A DNA stretch of 64,000 nucleotides from Rickettsiales bacterium. Its GTDB lineage: Bacteria; Pseudomonadota; Alphaproteobacteria; Rickettsiales; SXRF01. The translations under genes and the position numbers were made by a program. The DNA lies in the NCBI GenBank assembly GCA_947459535.1, contig CANHDY010000001.1, positions 4,653 through 68,652 on the forward strand, written 5' to 3'. The notes beneath the pieces were generated by a model that searched no databases, was not told the origin of the DNA, and worked only from the letters and a program-made list of their open reading frames with translations. This document shows positions 13,236 through 45,769 of the stretch, one piece after another. Numbering within the stretch: position 1 is the first letter of the stretch; the number at the start of each line of letters is the position of its first letter.

Positions 13236-13907
13236 ATGATCAAATTTGAAAACCACGCCTTCAAAGGCCTCGATACCGAGTTCAACAATCTCTACGGTAT
13301 GATTCAGCAGATGGCGGGCATGGTCTCGGAGCAGCTGCGCCTGTTTGATGAAGCACTCAGTGAGCAGATTCGCGACAATGCGGATGCCAAGCAGCTCGAT
13401 AAAAAAATCAATGCGCTTGAAATTGAGATTGAAAATGCTGTCGCTGCCATTTTGTCGCGCTACACCCTGATTGGCGATGAGCTGCGCTTCACCGTCACCA
13501 TGCTCAAGCTCTCCTCCACGCTGGAACGCATGGGTGATATGGCCAAAAACTGCGTCAAGCGCACCGTTCGGCTGGTTCGGCCGGTGCAACCCGCCTTTGT
13601 ATCCGAAGCGCATAGCCTCAAAAAATTGATTGATACGATGCTGATGAGCAGCATGAGCCTTGTGCAGGAATATGATGAAACCAAAGCCGTAGCCCTGCTC
13701 GCGCAGGAGGATGAGGCGGACGGCCTGTATAAGAAAACTCAGCTGCTGCTGCAGCAGGATCTCGGCGATCATGCACAGCTCGTGGAATCAACCCACATGC
13801 TCTTCATCATCAAAAATCTCGAGCGCATGGCGGATCTGGCGCTCGAGATCGTGAAACTCTGCCACTATATCCATCTCGGCAGCAAATTCGAGCGCCCCAC
13901 CCTTTAA
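13236..13907 (+). CDS. phoU: phosphate signalling protein PhoU
   Basis: Two PhoU repeats with 'LERMGDMAKN' and 'LERMADLALE'. Confidence 0.8.
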   Translation: MIKFENHAFKGLDTEFNNLYGMIQQMAGMVSEQLRLFDEALSEQIRDNADAKQLDKKINALEIEIENAVAAILSRYTLIGDELRFTVTMLKLSSTLERMGDMAKNCVKRTVRLVRPVQPAFVSEAHSLKKLIDTMLMSSMSLVQEYDETKAVALLAQEDEADGLYKKTQLLLQQDLGDHAQLVESTHMLFIIKNLERMADLALEIVKLCHYIHLGSKFERPTL

Positions 13908-14395
13908 TCAAATATTTCGTCGGGATAAACGCCCCAGAGGCGTTTTTTTTCTGCCCAGCCGCGGCGTCCTTCCACTTGAAGCCGGCACCAGTCGCGCTCA
14001 CACTCCATCATCGAGGCAATCACCCCCGGCTTGGCTTTCAGTAGCGGCTTGGCATCGGCCTTGCTGTTGTGAAGCAATAGACACGGCTCCTTGCCGATAA
14101 TCATGGCATAGCGGCTGCCATCGATCATCATTTTATGAACCCAGCCGGTGGCGCCTTCTGCATCACGAATCTTGCGCCAGAAATCAAATTCTTCAATCAC
14201 CTCCACCGGCATATTCTGGCGACGATAAATCCATGCGATGGGATAGCGTGTGCCCGGGCCGGTGCGCACATTCGTCTCTTCATTTTTAAGGCTAACAAAA
14301 CGTGGAATCGGCAGGCCGGAATCCGCCAGCGGCGCGGCAAGGGCAGCGCTCGCCGCAAATATCCCAGATATCAGCCAGAAAAAAACAAATCTCAT
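13904..14395 (-). CDS. secreted SH3-like domain protein (DUF1058-like)
   Basis: Signal peptide, then 'PIPRFVSLK...NVRTGPG' and 'GWVH'. Confidence 0.7.
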   Translation of the reverse strand: MRFVFFWLISGIFAASAALAAPLADSGLPIPRFVSLKNEETNVRTGPGTRYPIAWIYRRQNMPVEVIEEFDFWRKIRDAEGATGWVHKMMIDGSRYAMIIGKEPCLLLHNSKADAKPLLKAKPGVIASMMECERDWCRLQVEGRRGWAEKKRLWGVYPDEIFD

Positions 14396-14416
14396 CTTTT
14401 GAATCTACATCACAAG

Positions 14417-15148
14417 CTACTGGTTTACAATAATCTTTATTGTTCTTGCCTGCCCTAAAAGCCCATCATAGCACCATAGCCTGCCCGAAAGCGACTGGCC
14501 GATGCCAAGCAGCTCCTTGATGGCTTCCAGCGCCTGCATGCTGCCGAGCATGCCAGCAAGCGGGCCGGCAATACCTTCCTGCGCGCAAGTAACCTCGCGC
14601 TGGGGCATCTCATGCACCAGATCGCGGTAGCCGGGGTGCGGCGCGCCAAAGTAGGGTTTAAAGGTGGAAAGCTGCGCTTCAAAACCGCTAATAGCGGCAG
14701 AGATCAGCGGCTTTTTTTCTGCCTCGCAGCTATCGGCCACCACAAACCGCGTGGCAAAATTATCCGAGCCATCCAGCACCACATCAAACTCCCGCACCAA
14801 TTCGCGCGCATTCTCCGCGTGGATGCGGCGCGGAAAAAGCGTCAGTTCCACATCGGGATTCAGCTCATTCACGCGATCCGCCGCCGCCTCGATCTTCAGC
14901 CGCCCCAAATCCCCCATCTCATACATCACCTGCCGCTGCAAATTGGAAAGCTCCACACGGTCATGCTCGCAGATGCCAATATGCCCAATGCCTGCTGCCG
15001 CCAGATAGGAAATCGCCGCGCTTCCTAGCCCGCCCGCGCCAATCACCAGCGCCGATGAAGCAAGCAGCTTTTCCTGCCCGGCCTCGCCGATCTCCGGCAA
15101 AACAAGGTGGCGCGCATAGCGGCGTTTTTGATCGTCGGTGAGTGGCAT
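14417..15148 (-). CDS. moeB: ThiF/MoeB/HesA-family adenylyltransferase
   Basis: 'RYARHL.LPEIG..GQ', 'VIGAGGLGS', 'SNLQRQ'. Confidence 0.8.
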   Translation of the reverse strand: MPLTDDQKRRYARHLVLPEIGEAGQEKLLASSALVIGAGGLGSAAISYLAAAGIGHIGICEHDRVELSNLQRQVMYEMGDLGRLKIEAAADRVNELNPDVELTLFPRRIHAENARELVREFDVVLDGSDNFATRFVVADSCEAEKKPLISAAISGFEAQLSTFKPYFGAPHPGYRDLVHEMPQREVTCAQEGIAGPLAGMLGSMQALEAIKELLGIGQSLSGRLWCYDGLLGQARTIKIIVNQ

Positions 15149-15233
15149 AGGTTTCGTAGGTTGCGAAGGTTACGAAGGTTGCGTAAGCTAAACCTACGAA
15201 ACTTACGAAACATACGCAACCTCCGTAACCTCC
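15149..15233. repeat. nonamer array inverted repeat: ~4x GGTTNCGNA then ~5x TNCGNAACC
   Basis: Read directly. Fills the whole spacer between the divergent start codons at 15148 and 15236. Confidence 0.9.
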
Positions 15234-17689: not shown

Positions 17690-18924
17690 GATAGTATTTC
17701 CTTCACCAGCCTCTCAGCCACTTGGGTTTTACTCTTCTTCGGCCATGGGTGCTGGCCATCTTTGGAAATGAATATCACCCGATTGTCATCATCACCAAAC
17801 ACTTTACCGCCGGAAACATCGTTGGCAAGCACCCAATCAGCGCCCTTGGCGTGATATTTCTTAGCCGCATGGCTTGCAAGCTTCTCGGTTTCTGCCGCAA
17901 AACCAACCACCAGGCGCGGGCGCTTCGTTTTGTGCTGCGCCACGCTTTTTAAAATATCCGGGTTTTCCTCAAGCTCCAGCGCCGGTTTTTTCCCCGTCTG
18001 TTTTTTGATTTTCTGCGCGGCTGGTTTCACATGCCAGTCCCCCACTGCGGCGGCAAACACCGCCACATCCACCGGAAGCAGCCTGTGCACCGCCTCATGC
18101 ATCTCGCGCGCTGTGGTCACATGCACGACCGAAACACCCGCAGGATCAGCAAGCTGCGTCGGCCCCGAAACCAGCGTCACCTTCACACCCACCTTGGCAA
18201 GCGCCGCCGCAATCGCATGCCCCTGCTTGCCGCTGGAGCGATTGGCAATATAGCGCACCGGATCAATCGGTTCATGCGTCGGGCCAGAGGTGACGAGAGC
18301 GGTGATACTCTTTGACCCCCTCTCCCTTTCAGGGAGAGGGTTGGGGTGAGGGTTATGTCTTTTACCCCCCTCACCCTGCCCTCTCCCCGCAGGGGAGAGG
18401 GTTCTAAGCACCACTTCCACAATCTCCTGCGGCTCGGCCATACGCCCGGGGCCTTCTTCGCCGCAGGCCAGCATGCCGACACCCGGCTCGATCACTTCCG
18501 CGCCGTCAGCCTTGAGCTGCGCCACGTTGCGCTGCGTGGCGGGGTGGCGCCACATCTGCGTGTTCATCGCTGGTGCTACGAGCAGTTTTTTATTGTTAGC
18601 AAGCAGCGTGGCGGTTGCCATATCATCGGCAATCCCATGCACCATCTTGGCGATAATATCGGCAGTTGCAGGTGCCACGAGCAGCAAATCCGTTTCGCGT
18701 GAGAAACGAATATGCCACATGTCCTTCTTTTCCTTGGGCGAGAATAAATCCGTGGAAACGGGATTGCCCGAAAGCTTTTCCAGTTCTTTCACATTCACAA
18801 ATTCGCTGCCGCCGCGCGTGACAATGCAGTGCACACCAATCTTCTTTTGACGCAGCAGGCTAATAAGCGCCGGCGCCTTAATCGCCGCAATCGAACCGCT
18901 GATGATGAGGGTAATGGAGGGCAT
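17674..18924 (-). CDS. coaBC: bifunctional phosphopantothenoylcysteine decarboxylase/synthetase
   Basis: 'ISGSIAAIK', 'PAMN..M', 'VTSGPTHEPIDPVRYIANRSSGKQG'. Start set at 'MPSITLII'; upstream codons are a translated repeat. Confidence 0.9.
   Translation of the reverse strand: MPSITLIISGSIAAIKAPALISLLRQKKIGVHCIVTRGGSEFVNVKELEKLSGNPVSTDLFSPKEKKDMWHIRFSRETDLLLVAPATADIIAKMVHGIADDMATATLLANNKKLLVAPAMNTQMWRHPATQRNVAQLKADGAEVIEPGVGMLACGEEGPGRMAEPQEIVEVVLRTLSPAGRGQGEGGKRHNPHPNPLPERERGSKSITALVTSGPTHEPIDPVRYIANRSSGKQGHAIAAALAKVGVKVTLVSGPTQLADPAGVSVVHVTTAREMHEAVHRLLPVDVAVFAAAVGDWHVKPAAQKIKKQTGKKPALELEENPDILKSVAQHKTKRPRLVVGFAAETEKLASHAAKKYHAKGADWVLANDVSGGKVFGDDDNRVIFISKDGQHPWPKKSKTQVAERLVKEILSSLRA
18316..18403. 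repeat. G/C-rich tripartite palindromic element, family A (CCCTCTCCC..GGGAGAGGG / GGGGTGAGGG..CCCTCACCC / CCCTCTCCCC..GGGGAGAGGG)
   Basis: Three consecutive hairpins read directly. Lies inside coaBC. Confidence 0.85.
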
Positions 18925-22402: not shown

Positions 22403-22494
22403 GCCGGTTCGATTTTCCTTGCCTTTCGCCTGTTCTTGTGCGATGCACATTTTTCCTTTGTAAAACACCAACTTATGCTGCGGTGCAGCATAAG

Positions 22495-22584
22495 CACGTG
22501 GTTATCGTGGCTCGTGGTTATCGTGGTTGAATAAAATTTTCACGACAATCACGATAGTCACGACAATCACGGCCATCACGAGCC
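22495..22584. repeat. CGTGGTT-unit array (arm 1), AT loop, CACGA-unit array (arm 2)
   Basis: cgtggttat cgtggct cgtggttat cgtggttg / aataaaatttt / cacgacaat cacgatagt cacgacaat cacggccat cacgagcc. Confidence 0.9.
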
Positions 22585-30718: not shown

Positions 30719-30784
30719 AATGACAGTATGGTGACACTTATAAGACAGGATAATGACAGTATGGTGACACTTATAAGACAGGAT
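30719..30784. repeat. perfect 2 x 33-bp tandem repeat
   Basis: aatgacagtatggtgacacttataagacaggat occurs twice. Lies in the AT-rich region upstream of the 463-aa orphan. Confidence 0.95.
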
Positions 30785-30817
30785 AATATAATGATATATA
30801 TATCTTTATTTTACCAA

Positions 30818-33478: not shown

Positions 33479-34924
33479 ATGAGTATGAATAGCACCACCC
33501 CGGAATCGCTTTTCTTTTCAGGAACCAGCCTCGACCAGGTTCGGGCGCAGCAGCTAGTCTCGTCCGCCCTTGACGGCATGGATGACGGCGAGCTGTTTTT
33601 GGAATACATCCAGTCGGAATCGCTGGCTTTTGATGATGGCCGCCTGAAAAATGCCAGCTTTAATACCGCGCAGGGCTTTGGGCTTCGCAGCGTACTCGGC
33701 GAGGCCACCGCCTATGCCCACGCCTCGGAAATCAGCGAAGCAGCGCTTGCCCGCGCTGCCCAGACCGTACGCGCCGTGAACCATGGCCAGAAACCCGTTC
33801 ATGCCAGCATGGCGCCCGCCTTTGGCACCAACCGCAAGCTCTACCGCGATATCAACCCGCTGAAGGAAGTGGCGTTTGAGGTGAAAGTAGCGCTGCTGCA
33901 GGAGATTGATGCTTACCTGCGCGGCAAGGATGCGCGTGTGAAGCAGGTTTCCGCCTCCATTTCGGGGCAGTGGCAGGCGGTGCATATTATGAAAGCAGAC
34001 GGCAGCGCCGCAAGCGACATCCGCCCGCTGGTGCGCGTGAATGTCAGCGTGATTGTCGAAGAACATGGCCGCCGCGAATCCGGCTCCAGCGGCGCGGGCG
34101 GCCGCGTGGCTTATGCACAATATATAGGCGAAGGCGGCTGGAAAAAGCTGGCGGATGAAGCGCTGCGGCAAGCGCTGGTGAACCTTGAGTCCATCCCCGC
34201 CCCGGCCGGCGAAATGCCGGTGGTGCTGGGGAATAGCTGGTGCGGCGTTTTGCTGCATGAAGCGATCGGCCACGGGCTGGAAGGTGATTTCAACCGCAAA
34301 GGAACCTCGGCATTTGCCGGGCTTATGGGCAAACAGGTCGCAAGTAAAGGCGTCACCATCGTCGATGATGGCACGATTGTTGATAAGCGCGGCTCGCTCT
34401 CGATTGATGATGAAGGCACCCCAACCTCACGGACCACGCTAATTGAGGATGGCATCCTTGTTGGCTATATTCAGGACAGGCTAAATGCCCGCCTGATGAA
34501 CATGCGCGCCACCGGCAATGGCCGCCGCGAAAGCTTCGCTCACCAGCCCATGCCGCGCATGACCAACACCTATATGTTAAATGGTGAAGGCACACGCGAA
34601 TCGATGATCGCCTCGGTGAAGCGCGGTATTTATGCGGCGCATTTTGGCGGCGGCCAGGTGGATATCACCTCCGGCAAATTCGTGTTTTCTGCTTCCGAAG
34701 CCTACCTGATTGAAAACGGCAAAATCACCGCGCCGCTGAAAGGCGCAACCCTGATTGGCAACGGCCCCGACTGTCTCACCAAAATTCGCGCCATCGGGAA
34801 TGACACGGCGCTGGATGATGGCGTCGGCACCTGCGGCAAAGCCGGCCAGTCTGTGCCCGTCGGCGTCGGCCAGCCCTCCCTTCTCATTGATGCAATGACG
34901 GTGGGTGGGACGGCTGTCGGATGA
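33479..34924 (+). CDS. tldD: metalloprotease TldD
   Basis: 'HEAIGHGLEGD', 'GNGRRESF', 'VGTCGKAGQ'. Confidence 0.92.
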   Translation: MSMNSTTPESLFFSGTSLDQVRAQQLVSSALDGMDDGELFLEYIQSESLAFDDGRLKNASFNTAQGFGLRSVLGEATAYAHASEISEAALARAAQTVRAVNHGQKPVHASMAPAFGTNRKLYRDINPLKEVAFEVKVALLQEIDAYLRGKDARVKQVSASISGQWQAVHIMKADGSAASDIRPLVRVNVSVIVEEHGRRESGSSGAGGRVAYAQYIGEGGWKKLADEALRQALVNLESIPAPAGEMPVVLGNSWCGVLLHEAIGHGLEGDFNRKGTSAFAGLMGKQVASKGVTIVDDGTIVDKRGSLSIDDEGTPTSRTTLIEDGILVGYIQDRLNARLMNMRATGNGRRESFAHQPMPRMTNTYMLNGEGTRESMIASVKRGIYAAHFGGGQVDITSGKFVFSASEAYLIENGKITAPLKGATLIGNGPDCLTKIRAIGNDTALDDGVGTCGKAGQSVPVGVGQPSLLIDAMTVGGTAVG

Positions 34925-35016
34925 CGGCTGACGGCTCACGAAAAAATCAGAAATTCATAGAAAACCTAGTCGATTCCGCCCATTTTCTTACTTGTCATCC
35001 GCCATCCGTCATCCGT
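34909..35016. repeat. CGGATGA/CGGCTGA heptamer arm (34909-34940) and TCATCCG arm (34993-35016), ~52-nt spacer
   Basis: Read directly. Arm 1 overlaps the last tldD codons and the stop codon. Confidence 0.8.
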
Positions 35017-35133
35017 TTATGACAGTTCCATGACAGTTCGGTTACGGAACCGTGAAGATTGCATCCACGGGCGTTTTAGCATTTGTGCTCTGTTTGGTTT
35101 TCGATAAGATGAGTACATAGAGGAACACAAATT

Positions 35134-35935: not shown

Positions 35936-36022
35936 CGGATGACGGATGACGGTTGTCGGATGACGAAGCATCTGCTTTAGTGTTTTTTGTCATCTGTCAT
36001 CCGTCATCTGTCATCCGCCACC
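35936..36022. repeat. CGGATGA heptamer arm, loop, GTCATCY heptamer arm
   Basis: cggatga cggatga cggttgt cggatga ... gtcatct gtcatcc gtcatct gtcatcc gccacc, then the lgt ATG. Confidence 0.9.
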
Positions 36023-36865: not shown

Positions 36866-37942
36866 ATGAACGATTTACTTTCCATCATCAAGGAACGCAT
36901 CGCTGAAAACGGGCCGATTCCGGTTTCGGAATATATGAGCCTGTGCCTTGCCCATCCTGAGCATGGCTATTACATGAAACGCGACCCGCTGGGCAAGGAT
37001 GGCGATTTTATTACGTCACCGGAAATCTCTCAGGTTTTTGGGGAATTGCTGGGTCTTTGGATCGCAAACCAGTGGGAAAAGCAAGGAAAGCCAAACGCCA
37101 CCCTGCTTGAAATGGGCCCCGGGCGCGGCACACTGATGAATGACGCCCTGCGCGCCACTAAAAAAATTAAGGGATTGCATGATGCGGTCTCGGTTCGTCT
37201 GCTGGAAATCAGCCCGGCGCTGAAGCAAAAACAATGGCAGCTGCTGGCGGGCAAGCACCATGATCTCGGCTGGCTGGAATCACTCGATTCACTGCCGCTA
37301 GAGCCCCTTTTTGTGGTGGCCAATGAGTTTTTTGACGCCCTGCCAATCAGGCAGTTTGTATGGCAAAATGAGAAGTGGCATGAGCGTTATGTTGGAATGG
37401 ACGGCGATCAACTTAAGTTCGTCATCGCGAGTGAGCGAAGCGAGCGTGGCGATCCAGACTGGATTGCTTCACCTTCGGCTCGCAATGACGGTGAGATTAA
37501 AGAAATTTGTGAACCAGCAACTGAAATCATTTCAAAGATCTCAAGCCATATTAAAACCTATGGCGGCGCGGCGCTCATCATTGATTACGGCTACAATGAA
37601 GGCAACGGCGACACGCTCCAGGCCATGCGTCGCCACCAGTATTTTGAAATATTTTCAAAGCCCGGTAGCGCCGACATCACCGCCCATGTCGATTTCGCCG
37701 CCCTCAAAGAAGCGGCAGAAAAAGCAGGCGCCAAAGTATTTGGCGCGACGCCGCAAGGGCGTTTCCTGATGAAGATCGGCGCCGGCCAGCGCACCCAGAA
37801 ACTCTGCGGAAGCGCCTCGCAGGAACAAAGCAGAGAGCTGATCTCGGGTCTCGATCGCCTCGCTTCCCCGGAAAAAATGGGCGAACTATTCAAAGTGCTG
37901 GCGATATTGCCGCCAGATGCCATGCATGCGGAGGGTTTTTAA
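36866..37942 (+). CDS. MidA/NDUFAF7-family SAM-dependent methyltransferase (DUF185)
   Basis: 'DFITSPEISQVFGEL', 'EMGPGRGTLM'. Carries a 69-bp palindromic element in frame. Confidence 0.8.
   Translation: MNDLLSIIKERIAENGPIPVSEYMSLCLAHPEHGYYMKRDPLGKDGDFITSPEISQVFGELLGLWIANQWEKQGKPNATLLEMGPGRGTLMNDALRATKKIKGLHDAVSVRLLEISPALKQKQWQLLAGKHHDLGWLESLDSLPLEPLFVVANEFFDALPIRQFVWQNEKWHERYVGMDGDQLKFVIASERSERGDPDWIASPSARNDGEIKEICEPATEIISKISSHIKTYGGAALIIDYGYNEGNGDTLQAMRRHQYFEIFSKPGSADITAHVDFAALKEAAEKAGAKVFGATPQGRFLMKIGAGQRTQKLCGSASQEQSRELISGLDRLASPEKMGELFKVLAILPPDAMHAEGF
37421..37489. repeat. compact composite element GTCATCGCGAG...ATCCAGaCTGGAT...CTCGCAATGAC
   Basis: 69 bp. Lies inside the midA-like CDS. 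Confidence 0.85.
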
Positions 37943-38781
37943 TGCTCTTTCCCCTCACCTCTTCCAATCTCGACTTACCACACATCCGCCACGGCTTTTT
38001 CAGCCGCAGTGGCGGCGTGAGTCAGGGTATCTACGCATCGCTGAACTGCGGCCCCGGCTCCGGCGATAATCTGGAACATGTGGGCAAAAACCGCCAGCGC
38101 GTAAGCAGCCACATGGGTGCACCGCTCATCACCTGCCATCAGGTTCACAGCAGCGAGGTGGTGACGGTTGAGATGCCATGGCAGCAAGGGCAGGCACCGC
38201 AGGCCGATGCGATGGTAACGAATCAGCCCGGCATCGCGCTGGGTATCCTGACGGCGGATTGCCTGCCGGTACTTTTTGCTGATCGCAGCCAGCGCATCAT
38301 CGGCGCGGCGCATGCCGGCTGGAAGGGTGCCTTCACCGGCGTACTGGAAAACACCATTGCCGCCATGAAAGCCCTTGGCGCCAGCGACATTGCCTGCGCC
38401 ATTGGCCCCGCCATTTCGCAGCCCTCTTATGAAGTCGGCCCGGAATTTTATGAGCGTTTCACGAAAATATACTCCCCCAGCTTGCGGGGGGAGATAGAGG
38501 GGGGTGATCATGCAACACTGCAAACTCACCCCCCCTACCCCCCCGCAAGCGGGGGGGTAATAAACAATGACCAATTCTTCATCCCCTCTTCCCGCGAAGG
38601 CCATCACCTCTTCGACCTCAAGGGCTATGCGCTGGCGCGGCTCAAAAATGCGGGCGTTGAGGCGGAACTTCTTGACCGCGATACCTGTTTTGAAGATGAT
38701 AGCTTCTTCAGCTTCCGCCGCGCCACCTTAATCGGCGAACGTGGCTATGGCAGGCAGGTTTCGGTAATATCATTAGTATAG
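37942..38781 (+). CDS. pgeF: peptidoglycan editing factor PgeF (YfiH/laccase-domain family)
   Basis: 'QVHSSEVV', 'ADAMVT', 'TADCLPV', 'HAGWKG'. Carries an ~87-bp element in frame. Confidence 0.85.
   Translation: MLFPLTSSNLDLPHIRHGFFSRSGGVSQGIYASLNCGPGSGDNLEHVGKNRQRVSSHMGAPLITCHQVHSSEVVTVEMPWQQGQAPQADAMVTNQPGIALGILTADCLPVLFADRSQRIIGAAHAGWKGAFTGVLENTIAAMKALGASDIACAIGPAISQPSYEVGPEFYERFTKIYSPSLRGEIEGGDHATLQTHPPYPPASGGVINNDQFFIPSSREGHHLFDLKGYALARLKNAGVEAELLDRDTCFEDDSFFSFRRATLIGERGYGRQVSVISLV
38472..38558. repeat. tripartite palindromic element, family B
   Basis: ctcccccagcttgcggggggag / ggggggtga..tcacccccc / acccccccgcaagcgggggggt. Lies inside pgeF. Confidence 0.85.
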
Positions 38782-40882: not shown

Positions 40883-40959
40883 CGTGGTTCGTGGTTATCG
40901 TGGCTCGTGATAAACGGCTACCACGATACTTAACCACGACGGCCACGGCAACCACGATC
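40883..40959. repeat. CGTGGTT-unit array inverted repeat
   Basis: Fills the complete spacer between the cysA stop (40960) and the pgsA start (40882). Confidence 0.9.
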
Positions 40960-42144: not shown

Positions 42145-43024
42145 GGTTTGCCTTTAGTTCCTTCGCATACCTAGCCTCAACTGCGTATTTTAGCAACAAA
42201 GTGAGCACGGCCAGTAAGGTCAGCAGCGACGCGACCGCAAACGCCGCTACGAAATTATATTCATTATACAGAATCTCCACATGCAGCGGCACAGTGTTCG
42301 TCTGCCCCTTGATATGGCCGGAAACGACTGACACTGCGCCAAACTCGCCCATCGCCCGTGCATTGCACAGCAGTACGCCGGAGAGCAGCGCCCATTTGAT
42401 ATTGGGCAGCGTCACGCTGATGAAGGTACGAAAGCCCGATGCGCCAAGCAGAATCGCCGCTTCCTCTTCTTCGCTGCCCTGCTCTTCCATCAGCGGAATC
42501 AGCTCACGCGCCACAAACGGAAAGGTGACAAAGATGGTGGCAATCACCAGGCCGGGCACCGCAAAAATAATCTGGATATCGTGTGCAGCGAGCCACTCGC
42601 CCAGCGCCGAATGCGCGCCAAACAGCAGCACATAAATCAGGCCGGAAATCACCGGCGAGACGGAAAACGGCAAATCAATGAAGGTGATGAGCAGGCGCTT
42701 GCCGGCAAATTCATATTTGGCAATCGCCCAGGAGGCGCAGAGGCCAAACACCACATTAAACGGCACCGCAATCGCCGCCACCAGCAACGTGAGCTCGATG
42801 GCCGACAGCGCATGGCGGTGGGCAAGCGCATCTGCGTAAGCCTCCCAGCCCTTTGCAAACGCTTCTGCAAAAACCACCGCCAGCGGCAACGCCACCAGCG
42901 CCAGCATGAAGCCAAGCGCGACAGCAATGAGCACCAACTTCACCCACCATGGCTCTCCTAAAATCTCCCTCTCCCTTTTAGGGAGAGGGTTGGGGTGAGG
43001 GTTATCAGTCCAAATGACGCTCAT
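42134..43024 (-). CDS. cysW: sulfate ABC transporter permease CysW
   Basis: Permease EAA-type region '[15 protein letters not shown]'. The first ~20 codons lie in a repeat element, so the start is uncertain. Confidence 0.85.
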
Positions 43025-43960: not shown

Positions 43961-45769
43961 CTATGACGCAAGCGATACATCTTCGATCATCAGCTGCGCG
44001 GTGATGTTGCCGTTATAGTGGTTTTCCTTAAGGTGGCCAATCAGCGAAATCTCCTTGCCGCGTGAAGAAAGTAGGCTGTCGCCCAGCTTGGTACCCACCG
44101 CGCGAAAGGCAATGGCGTTCAGGCGGGCGTTACTCAGGCGGTCGATCAGCAGCGTGCGGATATGCTGCTCGCCCACAATCTCCGGCTTCAAATTCACGGC
44201 ATGATCCACCATCAGCCGCACCGAAGGGTTGCCCTGCCCGAACGGCTCCAGCTGTTTCAGAGTATCGATCAGCTGGGTGGTCGCGCCGCCCACCGCCACA
44301 CGCGCATCAATTCGGTAGTGACGCTTTCGCGATATGTCGCCCACTTGGCGGCGAATATGATCACCAAGGAATTGTTCCAGCTGCGGAATATATTCTTCTT
44401 TGACCGTAAAGCCAGCCGCCATGGCATGACCACCGCCCGCAACCAAAAGGCCGCTGCCCAGCGCCGCAATCACCGCCGCGCCCAGATCCACCCCGCTCAC
44501 ACTGCGCGCCGAGGCCTTGCCCACACCATCTTTCAGAGCGATCACCGCGCACGGCACATTAAAACGTTCCTTCACCCTGCCCGCGACAATGCCGATTACC
44601 CCCGGGTGCCAGCCCTCGCCGGAAAGCAGCAGCACCGGCGCATTCTGCGGCGCGCACTCAGCAAGCGCCATGGCTTCTTCCAGCACACCCGCCTCAATGG
44701 CGCGGCGCTCTTCGTTGTAGCGCTCCAGCTCAGCGGCAAGCATCGTTGCCTCTTCTTCATTCTCGCTGGTGAGAATACGCACACCAAGATCCGACTTGCC
44801 CACGCGCCCGCCAGCATTGATGCGCGGCCCCAGAATAAAACCGCAATGATAGGCCGCAAGCTGACCATCGGCGCGCGCGGTCTGCAGCAGCGTGCGAATG
44901 CCGATATTCTGCTTAGCTGCCATCACTTTCAGCCCTTGCGCGACCAGTGCGCGGTTAGCGCCGATAAGCGGCACCACATCCGCCACCGTGCCCAGCGCGA
45001 CAATATCGAGGAGTTGTTTCAGGTCAGGTAAAGGTCGTGGTTCGTGGTTCGTGGTTCGTGGTTCGTGATTTCGCAGCACTCGATTCACCGCCACACACAG
45101 GAGGAATGCCACGCCCACCGCTGCAAGGTACGTATGCGGTGAGGTTTCATCGAGCCGGTTGGGGTTCACCAGCGCAAGGCATTTAGGTTTTTTCGCCTCA
45201 CCCTGATGATGATCCACCACCACCACATCCAGCCCCGCGTCATGCGCTGCCTCCAGCGGAGCAAAGGAAAGTGTGCCGCAATCCACCGTAATGACAAGGC
45301 TGGCGCCCTGCTCTTTCAGCAAAAGCAGGCCAGCGCTATTAGGGCCATAACCCTCCTTCATACGATCCGGAATATAAACCAATGGCTCGCTGCCCAGCGC
45401 ACGCAAATAGCGCACCAGCAGCGCAGAAGACGTCGCGCCATCCACATCATAATCGCCCCAGATGGCGATGGTTTCCCCCGCCAGCACCGCCGCCGCCACA
45501 CGCTCTGCCGCCACCTCCATATCCAGCAAATGTGCTGGATCCGGCAAAGATGATTTAAGGCTGGGATTAAGGAAATCATGAACCTGCTCAGTGGTAACAC
45601 CGCGCGCTACCAGAATTCGTGAGAGTATCTCTGGTAGATCATGCGCGTGCATCACCTGCTGCACCAGATGCTCAGGGGCTTGGCTAAATTGCCATGAAGC
45701 GCCGGTCGCGGAAACGAGGTGAGAGGATGATTGGATGATTGGATGATGAAGTGAGTTTGTGCTATGCAT
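43961..45769 (-). CDS. recJ: single-stranded-DNA-specific exonuclease RecJ
   Basis: DHH motifs 'IWGDYDVDGATS', 'VVVDHH', 'GGGHAMAAG'. Contains an in-frame heptamer tract. Confidence 0.92.
   Translation of the reverse strand: MHSTNSLHHPIIQSSSHLVSATGASWQFSQAPEHLVQQVMHAHDLPEILSRILVARGVTTEQVHDFLNPSLKSSLPDPAHLLDMEVAAERVAAAVLAGETIAIWGDYDVDGATSSALLVRYLRALGSEPLVYIPDRMKEGYGPNSAGLLLLKEQGASLVITVDCGTLSFAPLEAAHDAGLDVVVVDHHQGEAKKPKCLALVNPNRLDETSPHTYLAAVGVAFLLCVAVNRVLRNHEPRTTNHEPRPLPDLKQLLDIVALGTVADVVPLIGANRALVAQGLKVMAAKQNIGIRTLLQTARADGQLAAYHCGFILGPRINAGGRVGKSDLGVRILTSENEEEATMLAAELERYNEERRAIEAGVLEEAMALAECAPQNAPVLLLSGEGWHPGVIGIVAGRVKERFNVPCAVIALKDGVGKASARSVSGVDLGAAVIAALGSGLLVAGGGHAMAAGFTVKEEYIPQLEQFLGDHIRRQVGDISRKRHYRIDARVAVGGATTQLIDTLKQLEPFGQGNPSVRLMVDHAVNLKPEIVGEQHIRTLLIDRLSNARLNAIAFRAVGTKLGDSLLSSRGKEISLIGHLKENHYNGNITAQLMIEDVSLAS
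45036..45070. repeat. direct heptamer tract (CGTGGTT)x4 + CGTGATT inside recJ
   Basis: Read directly. Translated on the minus strand as RNHEPRTTNHEPRP. Confidence 0.95.

Follow-up and report, generated by a model that had tools for sequence, protein, structure and literature searches.

In a 64,000-nucleotide stretch of contig CANHDY010000001.1 from an uncultured Rickettsiales bacterium (the whole stretch is called the window below), a 35-bp array of tandem heptamers lies in frame within recJ, the gene for the single-stranded-DNA-specific 5'-3' exonuclease RecJ. Its unit recurs in two intergenic hairpin arrays of the same window. The explanation that we favor, at a probability of roughly 0.6, is that the recJ tract is a tolerated in-frame member of this heptamer family, derived by slippage or copying and housed in a permissive, disordered loop of RecJ, and that its frameshift variants are rare deleterious by-products. 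An earlier note, made from the sequence alone, had read the tract as a potential slippage-driven on/off switch. That reading is unsupported, not refuted.

Direct reading of the plus strand gave four perfect copies of CGTGGTT (45,036 to 45,063) and a single CGTGATT (45,064 to 45,070), exactly as the earlier note had described them. Tandem Repeats Finder (TRF) reported period 7 at 45,035 to 45,067, with 4.7 copies, 100% matches and a score of 66, and with looser parameters extended the array to 45,070, with 5.1 copies and 96% matches. The tract is a direct array without a palindrome. The absence of a reverse-complement arm, also remarked on earlier, held within 350 nt on either side, and the recJ mRNA around the tract folds less than shuffled sequences do (z = +2.4). 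The 14-mer CGTGGTTCGTGGTT, with up to two mismatches allowed, has six occurrences in the window where dinucleotide shuffles predict 0.2, and none of 100 shuffles reached six. Nine of the ten plus-strand copies of CGTGGTT fall in just three arrays, at 22.5 kb, at 40.9 kb and in recJ, which bears out the proposed sharing of the unit. The coding strand, with one further A, is translated as R-NHEPRTT-NHEPR-P (RNHEPRTTNHEPRP) directly before LPDLKQLLDIVALGTVADVVPL, where the earlier note had placed its linker peptide. Because the units are identical to one another in all three codon phases, with a period of 7 nt and not 21, the tract would be a DNA-level repeat rather than a selected peptide.

Mis-assembly of short repeats can occur in metagenomes, and a collapsed or chimeric repeat was considered for this reason. 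It is extremely unlikely here: the tract is far below read length, the open reading frame (ORF) is intact, and another, independent assembly of this strain (L081; ENA assembly ERZ28613074, whose record name carries SAMN08331096) is identical to the window over 14,132 bp, with no gaps and two single-nucleotide differences, both in pgsA. Since this assembly is identical at the tract, the array is not a one-off assembly artefact.

The ORF around the tract encodes, by all tests applied, a bona fide RecJ of the DHH family, in agreement with the DNA-repair exonuclease that had been named as the target. Pfam matches were found to DHH (E = 1e-22), DHHA1 (E = 1.4e-15) and RecJ_OB (E = 5.7e-19), the product matched the solved RecJ structure 8y30 in PDB (E = 6e-76, residues 25-600), and the DYDVDG, DHH and GGGH motifs were invariant in RecJ alignments. 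The public annotation uses a later Met start and gives 567 amino acids. The tract sits about 700 nt inside the gene, at 39-41% of the ORF. An AlphaFold2 model made with 60 homologues as input (pLDDT 89.4, pTM 0.87) placed residues 236-249 in a coil flanked by helices 217-235 and 250-263. Mean pLDDT in the ten-residue blocks covering 231-250 was 71-73, against 85-97 in neighboring blocks, and the tract-encoded segment corresponds to a gap in the alignment to 8y30. Because of this low-confidence coil and the gap, the peptide that the repeat encodes is placed in a surface-type loop, which separates motif III from motif IV within the DHH domain. About 100 RecJ homologues of 57-67% identity have a short loop there, of the form E.G[FWY]F....EPDL[RK]QW, and REP-like in-frame insertions of 25-35 residues were found at the same loop in at least five lineages (P0004, P0017, P0060, P0079 and P0097). 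Judged from these alignments, the RecJ loop is hypervariable and insertion-tolerant.

We compared the loop in six recJ genes: the window, L001 (GCA_033763775.1; 94% amino acid identity), L084 (GCA_964654615.1; 93%), L085 (88%), L002 (a JAJTHB01 metagenome-assembled genome; 85%) and L082 (67%). By recJ nucleotide identity they are related as (((window, L001, L084), L085), L002), L082. The frame is intact in all six, and the loop differs from one to the next. Where the window has (AACCACG)5, L001 has AGTCGTC AGTTGCC AGTCGTC AGTCATC and L002 has (AGTCGCC)3.3, that is, arrays of a different unit, (AGTCGYC)n. L084 and L085 have no heptamer array; their loops are ancestral-like, QQGVFSSRQ and ESGHFSSPQ, with an 87-bp REP-like element. 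L082 reads RNHEPRALPDL, coded by the non-periodic AATCACGAGCCGCGCGCC. The check on recJ orthologues that had been suggested thus found that the tract is not kept. The loop types are discordant with the recJ tree, and the loop segment has therefore been replaced or recombined several times. In silico removal of three units from the window allele gave RNHEPRPLPDL, one residue off L082, and on these sequences the simplest relation between the window allele and an allele of the RNHEPR-x-LPDL kind would be a 21-bp, three-unit in-frame difference, in either direction.

The retention of NHEPR in L082 with other codons is what might be expected if (NHEPRTT)2 were a selected peptide repeat, acting as a functional linker or interaction motif, with the DNA periodicity secondary. 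This is very improbable in view of the codon-phase identity described above, and the loop, besides its lowered model confidence, is replaced by unrelated sequence in relatives 93-94% identical in RecJ. Separately, in a RecJ relative of 74% identity (P0248/L219), on a contig of 4x coverage, a TAA interrupts the reading frame within this loop (L219, 4745-4760; EARL-stop-PDPRLWLDIVALGT). It was considered as a frameshifted RecJ and set aside, as it ends at an in-frame stop unrelated to heptamers; the gene is a pseudogene, or else the stop is a sequencing error.

We propose that replication slippage, copying from sister arrays, or both would have produced the recJ tract as a DNA-level repeat whose peptide is probably neutral, and that purifying selection on recJ would remove every length state that is not a multiple of three bases. 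Gains and losses of one or two units would arise at some low rate and yield truncated, inactive RecJ, and such alleles would be deleterious and purged rather than serve as a regulated switch. Among the simple sequence repeats of bacteria, heptamers are reported to be in excess, and slippage has been suggested as the reason (PMC4692102); the TAACTGA repeats found inside ORFs of Beggiatoaceae lie mostly at permissive positions (PMC4679880). Several points weigh against this explanation. The recJ tract is 100% regular and the unconstrained intergenic arrays of the window only 76-90%; the tract is for this reason probably young and slippage-prone, its length having changed very recently or changing still, and its instability could be appreciable. 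Sampling is poor, as both window-type assemblies apparently come from one BioSample and seven L002-type contigs are 100% identical. The L001 and L002 loops differ by one unit plus 2 nt, possibly a past compensated frameshift. Finally, stepwise growth from two to five units would pass through null alleles.

These points bear on the proposal of a true contingency locus, in which frequent reversible slippage would switch RecJ off, by truncation near residue 250, and on again, generating subpopulations that differ in recombination, in repair or in the stability of repeats. The mechanical part of the proposal stood. The array is perfect and its 7-nt unit is not a multiple of three; with -2, -1, +1 or +2 units in silico, translation stopped at residues 243-254, and with -3 or +3 units it stayed in frame, in line with the frame argument of the earlier note. 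The truncated products, which contain neither DHH motif IV nor the DHHA1 and OB-fold domains, should from what is known of RecJ structure and function be inactive, so that each off state would be a clean null. Nothing was found in support of an evolved on/off switch: relatives are in frame, the repeat is not conserved even at 93-94% identity in RecJ, and no out-of-frame or truncated allele appeared among the six genes. Copy number is at the margin, since four perfect units and a degenerate fifth are at or below the cut-off of at least five that PhasomeIt screens use for long units (PMC6321876). Repeats adapted to phase variation occur preferentially toward N-termini (PMC3315296); this one is mid-gene, and recJ is a housekeeping gene. 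Taken together, these observations make a contingency locus distinctly unlikely.

Direct searches for alternative states were also negative. No tract-length difference was seen between the window and the L081 assembly, and the L002-type RecJ is the same on its seven contigs, which is uninformative given that the contigs do not differ anywhere. A protein database search with the N-terminal 197 amino acids found no truncated RecJ from this clade, the closest match having 74% identity. Metagenomes scanned for the recJ flanks, set as anchors around a gap of variable length, gave no matches; related JGI contigs showed only a long REP-type loop or a changed anchor. A scan with (ACGAACC)x3 returned more than 120 contigs, none with this recJ; the scan shows only that the unit forms arrays in many unrelated organisms. 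With one population of this strain sampled, and through assemblies, these tests have low power, and the absence of length polymorphism says little because the sampled populations are clonal. The contigs from the second scan (L099-L218) carry (ACGAACC)n arrays of 3-37 copies. Roughly half of the arrays run through long frames free of stop codons, and for 26 of 125 an inverted partner lies no more than 200 nt away.

Stabilization of tandem repeats has been reported for single-strand exonucleases, RecJ among them, in a passage of PMC3942315 that cites Feschenko et al. 2003; on that report, a recJ switch could reinforce itself in a repeat-rich genome. Taken further, an active switch would be a self-referential mutator, in which loss of RecJ would for a time raise the expansion, contraction and copying of the fast-changing hairpin arrays as well as its own reversion, the arrays spreading by an undescribed copying process. 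We hold this extension to be highly doubtful. The long form of the recJ ORF holds at its 5' end a perfect 8-bp repeat, (GGATGATT)x2.9 (45,725-45,747; minus-strand translation HHPIIQSS). This was considered as a better switch candidate because its TRF copy number was 3.4 in L084 and 2.9 in the window. It was rejected when the aligned sequences proved to be of one length and in frame; L001 and L084 agree with the window in both respects, so the repeat is not polymorphic.

Table 1. Coordinates of recJ, its heptamer tract and the intergenic array pairs of the window.
Feature	Position	Strand	Remarks
recJ, single-stranded-DNA-specific 5'-3' exonuclease	43961..45769	minus	602-aa ORF; Pfam domains; PDB match
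Codons for RecJ residues 234-247 (RNHEPRTTNHEPRP)	45029..45070	minus	coil in AlphaFold2 model; gap against 8y30
Heptamer tract	45036..45070	minus (coding)	plus strand (CGTGGTT)x4 + CGTGATT; coding AATCACG(AACCACG)x4; direct reading and TRF
9-mer array pair	15142..15231		occupies the entire spacer between two divergent start codons
Array pair, CGTGGTT/AACCACG family	22494..22581	+	ends 5-8 nt before malic-enzyme gene ATG; hairpin -38.1 kcal/mol (z = -6.1)
Array pair, second family (GACGGCT/GTCATCC)	34909..35016	+	left arm overlaps 3' end of PmbA/TldD gene; z = -2.2
Array pair, second family (CGGATGA/TGTCATC)	35936..36020	+	from upstream stop codon to 3 nt before lgt ATG; -51.9 kcal/mol (z = -9.3)
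Array pair, CGTGGTT/AACCACG family, period 7-9	40883..40957	minus	fills upstream stop codon to pgsA ATG; -41.5 kcal/mol (z = -6.7)

The window contains five intergenic pairs, each made of a 7-9-mer array followed by its own inverted array (Table 1). RNA folding was strong for four of the five (z = -4.4 to -9.3) and weaker for the pair at 34.9 kb. Four occupy the spacer from stop codon to ATG, or between divergent starts, with 0-8 nt left between the C/A-rich arm and the start codon. At 34.9 kb, the pair instead ends about 118 nt upstream of the next called gene. The recJ tract shares strings of 15-21 nt with the pairs at 22.5 and 40.9 kb, for example TCGTGGTTCGTGGTT, and the same ...CGTGAT end. 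Like cyanobacterial STRR repeats, the tandem 7-nt unit recurs at several loci (22.5 kb, 40.9 kb and recJ); the recJ tract lacks the intergenic placement as an inverted pair, being intragenic and without a partner arm. It is thus an atypical, solo member of the tandem-heptamer array family. Rfam gave no family for the window or its arrays, only chance hairpin matches.

Arrays at orthologous sites have been swapped wholesale among relatives whose flanking genes are 85-95% identical. Contigs L096 and L089, which belong to the L001 and L002 genomes, were included in this comparison. Upstream of lgt, the window has CGGATGA/TGTCATC, L096 and L085 both have TTAGGGA/CCCTAAT, and L089 has GCAGTTG/CAACTGC; L082 is not covered at this site. 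Upstream of pgsA, the CGTGGTT type of the window is replaced by the 8-mer GGTTATAG in L096, by a simple hairpin in L085 and by GTGGTTA/CACCATC in L082, and L089 has no array, the two genes overlapping at TGAATG. Because whole arrays swap between such similar flanks, in situ slippage alone cannot account for the exchange, and copying between loci or recombination with divergent alleles is required. L085 and L086, 0.33% divergent, show no indels, which says nothing on slippage rate; array copy number is identical in the L002-type contigs, which likewise carry no information on it.

This cassette-like exchange leads to another possible origin of the recJ tract, namely that it did not grow in place: one arm of a CGTGGTT/AACCACG hairpin would have entered the recJ loop as a copy, through gene conversion, a transposition-like process or recombination with a divergent allele, and displaced an L084-like loop that held a REP-like element. 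The flanks of the window loop match L084, the bearer of a REP-type loop; 15-nt strings and the CGTGAT terminus are common to the tract and to the left arm upstream of pgsA; and the loop types do not follow the recJ tree. We nevertheless consider such an insertion unlikely, if conceivable. The outgroup L082 has RNHEPR-A-LPDL at the same place, so that frame and flanks look inherited and the difference is a simple one of three units, and no second arm, target duplication or mobility gene was seen.

In the recJ copy the C/A-rich strand is that of the mRNA, the sense orientation also found in the start-proximal arms of all five pairs. Combined with the Shine-Dalgarno-like motif being found in none of six array-adjacent genes against 31 of 80 genes overall, this orientation could point to a functional nucleic-acid element: (CACGAAC)n in recJ mRNA or DNA would be bound by a putative trans factor shared with the arrays just before the maeB and pgsA start codons, or pair with the same G-rich arms as they do, and so couple the expression of recJ to them. 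Such an element is quite improbable, as the array is absent or different in recJ of the closest relatives and lies deep in the ORF, where no start codon follows. The Shine-Dalgarno contrast itself is weak (p ~0.05), and no Rfam family matches.

A second intragenic case was found in another housekeeping gene, YfiH/Cu-oxidase_4 (37,942-38,781 of the window), which has a variable loop holding alternative in-frame repeats. In L096 (9629-9661) the loop carries (ACCAACA)4.7 in frame, translated as TNNQQPTTNNQ, and L089 is similar there; in the window the same loop carries an 81-bp palindromic REP-like in-frame insertion (about 38,470-38,560, within the region 38,443-38,604). L085 (at 18039) and L098, 99.25% identical, differ in this loop by the presence or absence of 18 bp in frame, the sole indel in 5.8 kb. 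In-frame repeat alleles in permissive loops are therefore general in the lineage and not specific to recJ, and the occurrence of like repeats in an unrelated gene also counts against a contingency locus. A REP-like element of the GGGAGAGGGTTG type (42,981-43,003 and 18,332-18,354) is translated in frame near the N-terminus of an ABC permease; elements of this type are also inserted in the recJ loop of L084, L085 and several more distant RecJ homologues.

Rickettsia palindromic elements (RPEs), which insert in frame into protein-coding genes, measure about 100-150 bp. Like them, the recJ tract is a dispersed repeat lying in frame in a permissive surface loop of a conserved protein without inactivating it: the segment is coil in the model, is missing from most homologues and leaves the ORF intact. 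The REP-like elements in the recJ loops of L084 and L085 and in the YfiH-like gene of the window are insertions of this kind. Unlike RPEs, the recJ tract is a non-palindromic tandem array and much shorter.

Among known array systems, the family, most likely a lineage-specific one, resembles the cyanobacterial STRR repeats. The STRR, Xanthomonas (GGGAATC) and Nostoc arrays are likewise tandem 7-nt units with one family dispersed over many loci per genome; they are mostly intergenic, sometimes form inverted pairs capable of stem-loops, and vary widely in length and sequence at the same intergenic sites among close relatives (PMC4692102). The present arrays differ in having several unit families per genome, nearly always as inverted pairs that fill the spacer from stop codon to ATG, in the swapping of whole units between relatives with closely similar flanks, and in the single arm within a conserved enzyme, all in an uncultured alphaproteobacterium. 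The TAACTGA arrays of marine Beggiatoaceae are also heptamers a few nucleotides from start codons, accompanied by few canonical ribosome-binding sites, with a minority inside ORFs at insertion-tolerant positions (PMC4679880); however, they consist of one conserved unit in direct repeats without a complementary arm, whereas the units here are diverse and hairpin-forming. With the contingency loci of Haemophilus, Neisseria and Campylobacter, the recJ tract shares a non-triplet tandem repeat in an ORF, where slippage by one unit would abolish the product; it departs from them in its roughly five copies, mid-gene position, housekeeping target, lack of conservation in sisters and lack of observed length polymorphism under clonal sampling.

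Taken alone, the recJ tract is a modest curiosity, a simple sequence repeat in a coding region that selection keeps in frame. More can be learned from its surroundings, and the intergenic hairpin arrays are of greater interest than the tract itself: an uncultured freshwater alphaproteobacterial lineage has genome-specific families of 7-9-mer hairpins before start codons, with cassette-like exchange and an occasional in-frame landing in housekeeping enzymes. The unexplained excess of heptamers in bacteria becomes testable in a new group, and the alternative loop alleles of recJ and the YfiH-like gene are natural experiments on array origin, movement and tolerance by proteins. If the recJ copy did switch, a repeat-stabilizing nuclease would be linked to repeat instability.

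Three further features were noted in these regions. At 35,019-35,110 of the window, a conserved non-coding block with two copies of ATGACAGTTCC followed by GGTTACGGAACCGTGAAGATTGCATCC... lies upstream of a 61-aa ORF; it is common to L096, L089 and L085 and has no Rfam match. L085 has a BrnT/BrnA toxin-antitoxin pair (13898-14429) between ABC permease and ATPase genes that the window lacks. At 30,719-30,787, the AT-rich spacer that separates the COX1 gene from a gene of 463 aa contains a perfect tandem duplication of 33 bp (2.1 copies), with the top TRF score in the window and ATGACAG motifs inside.

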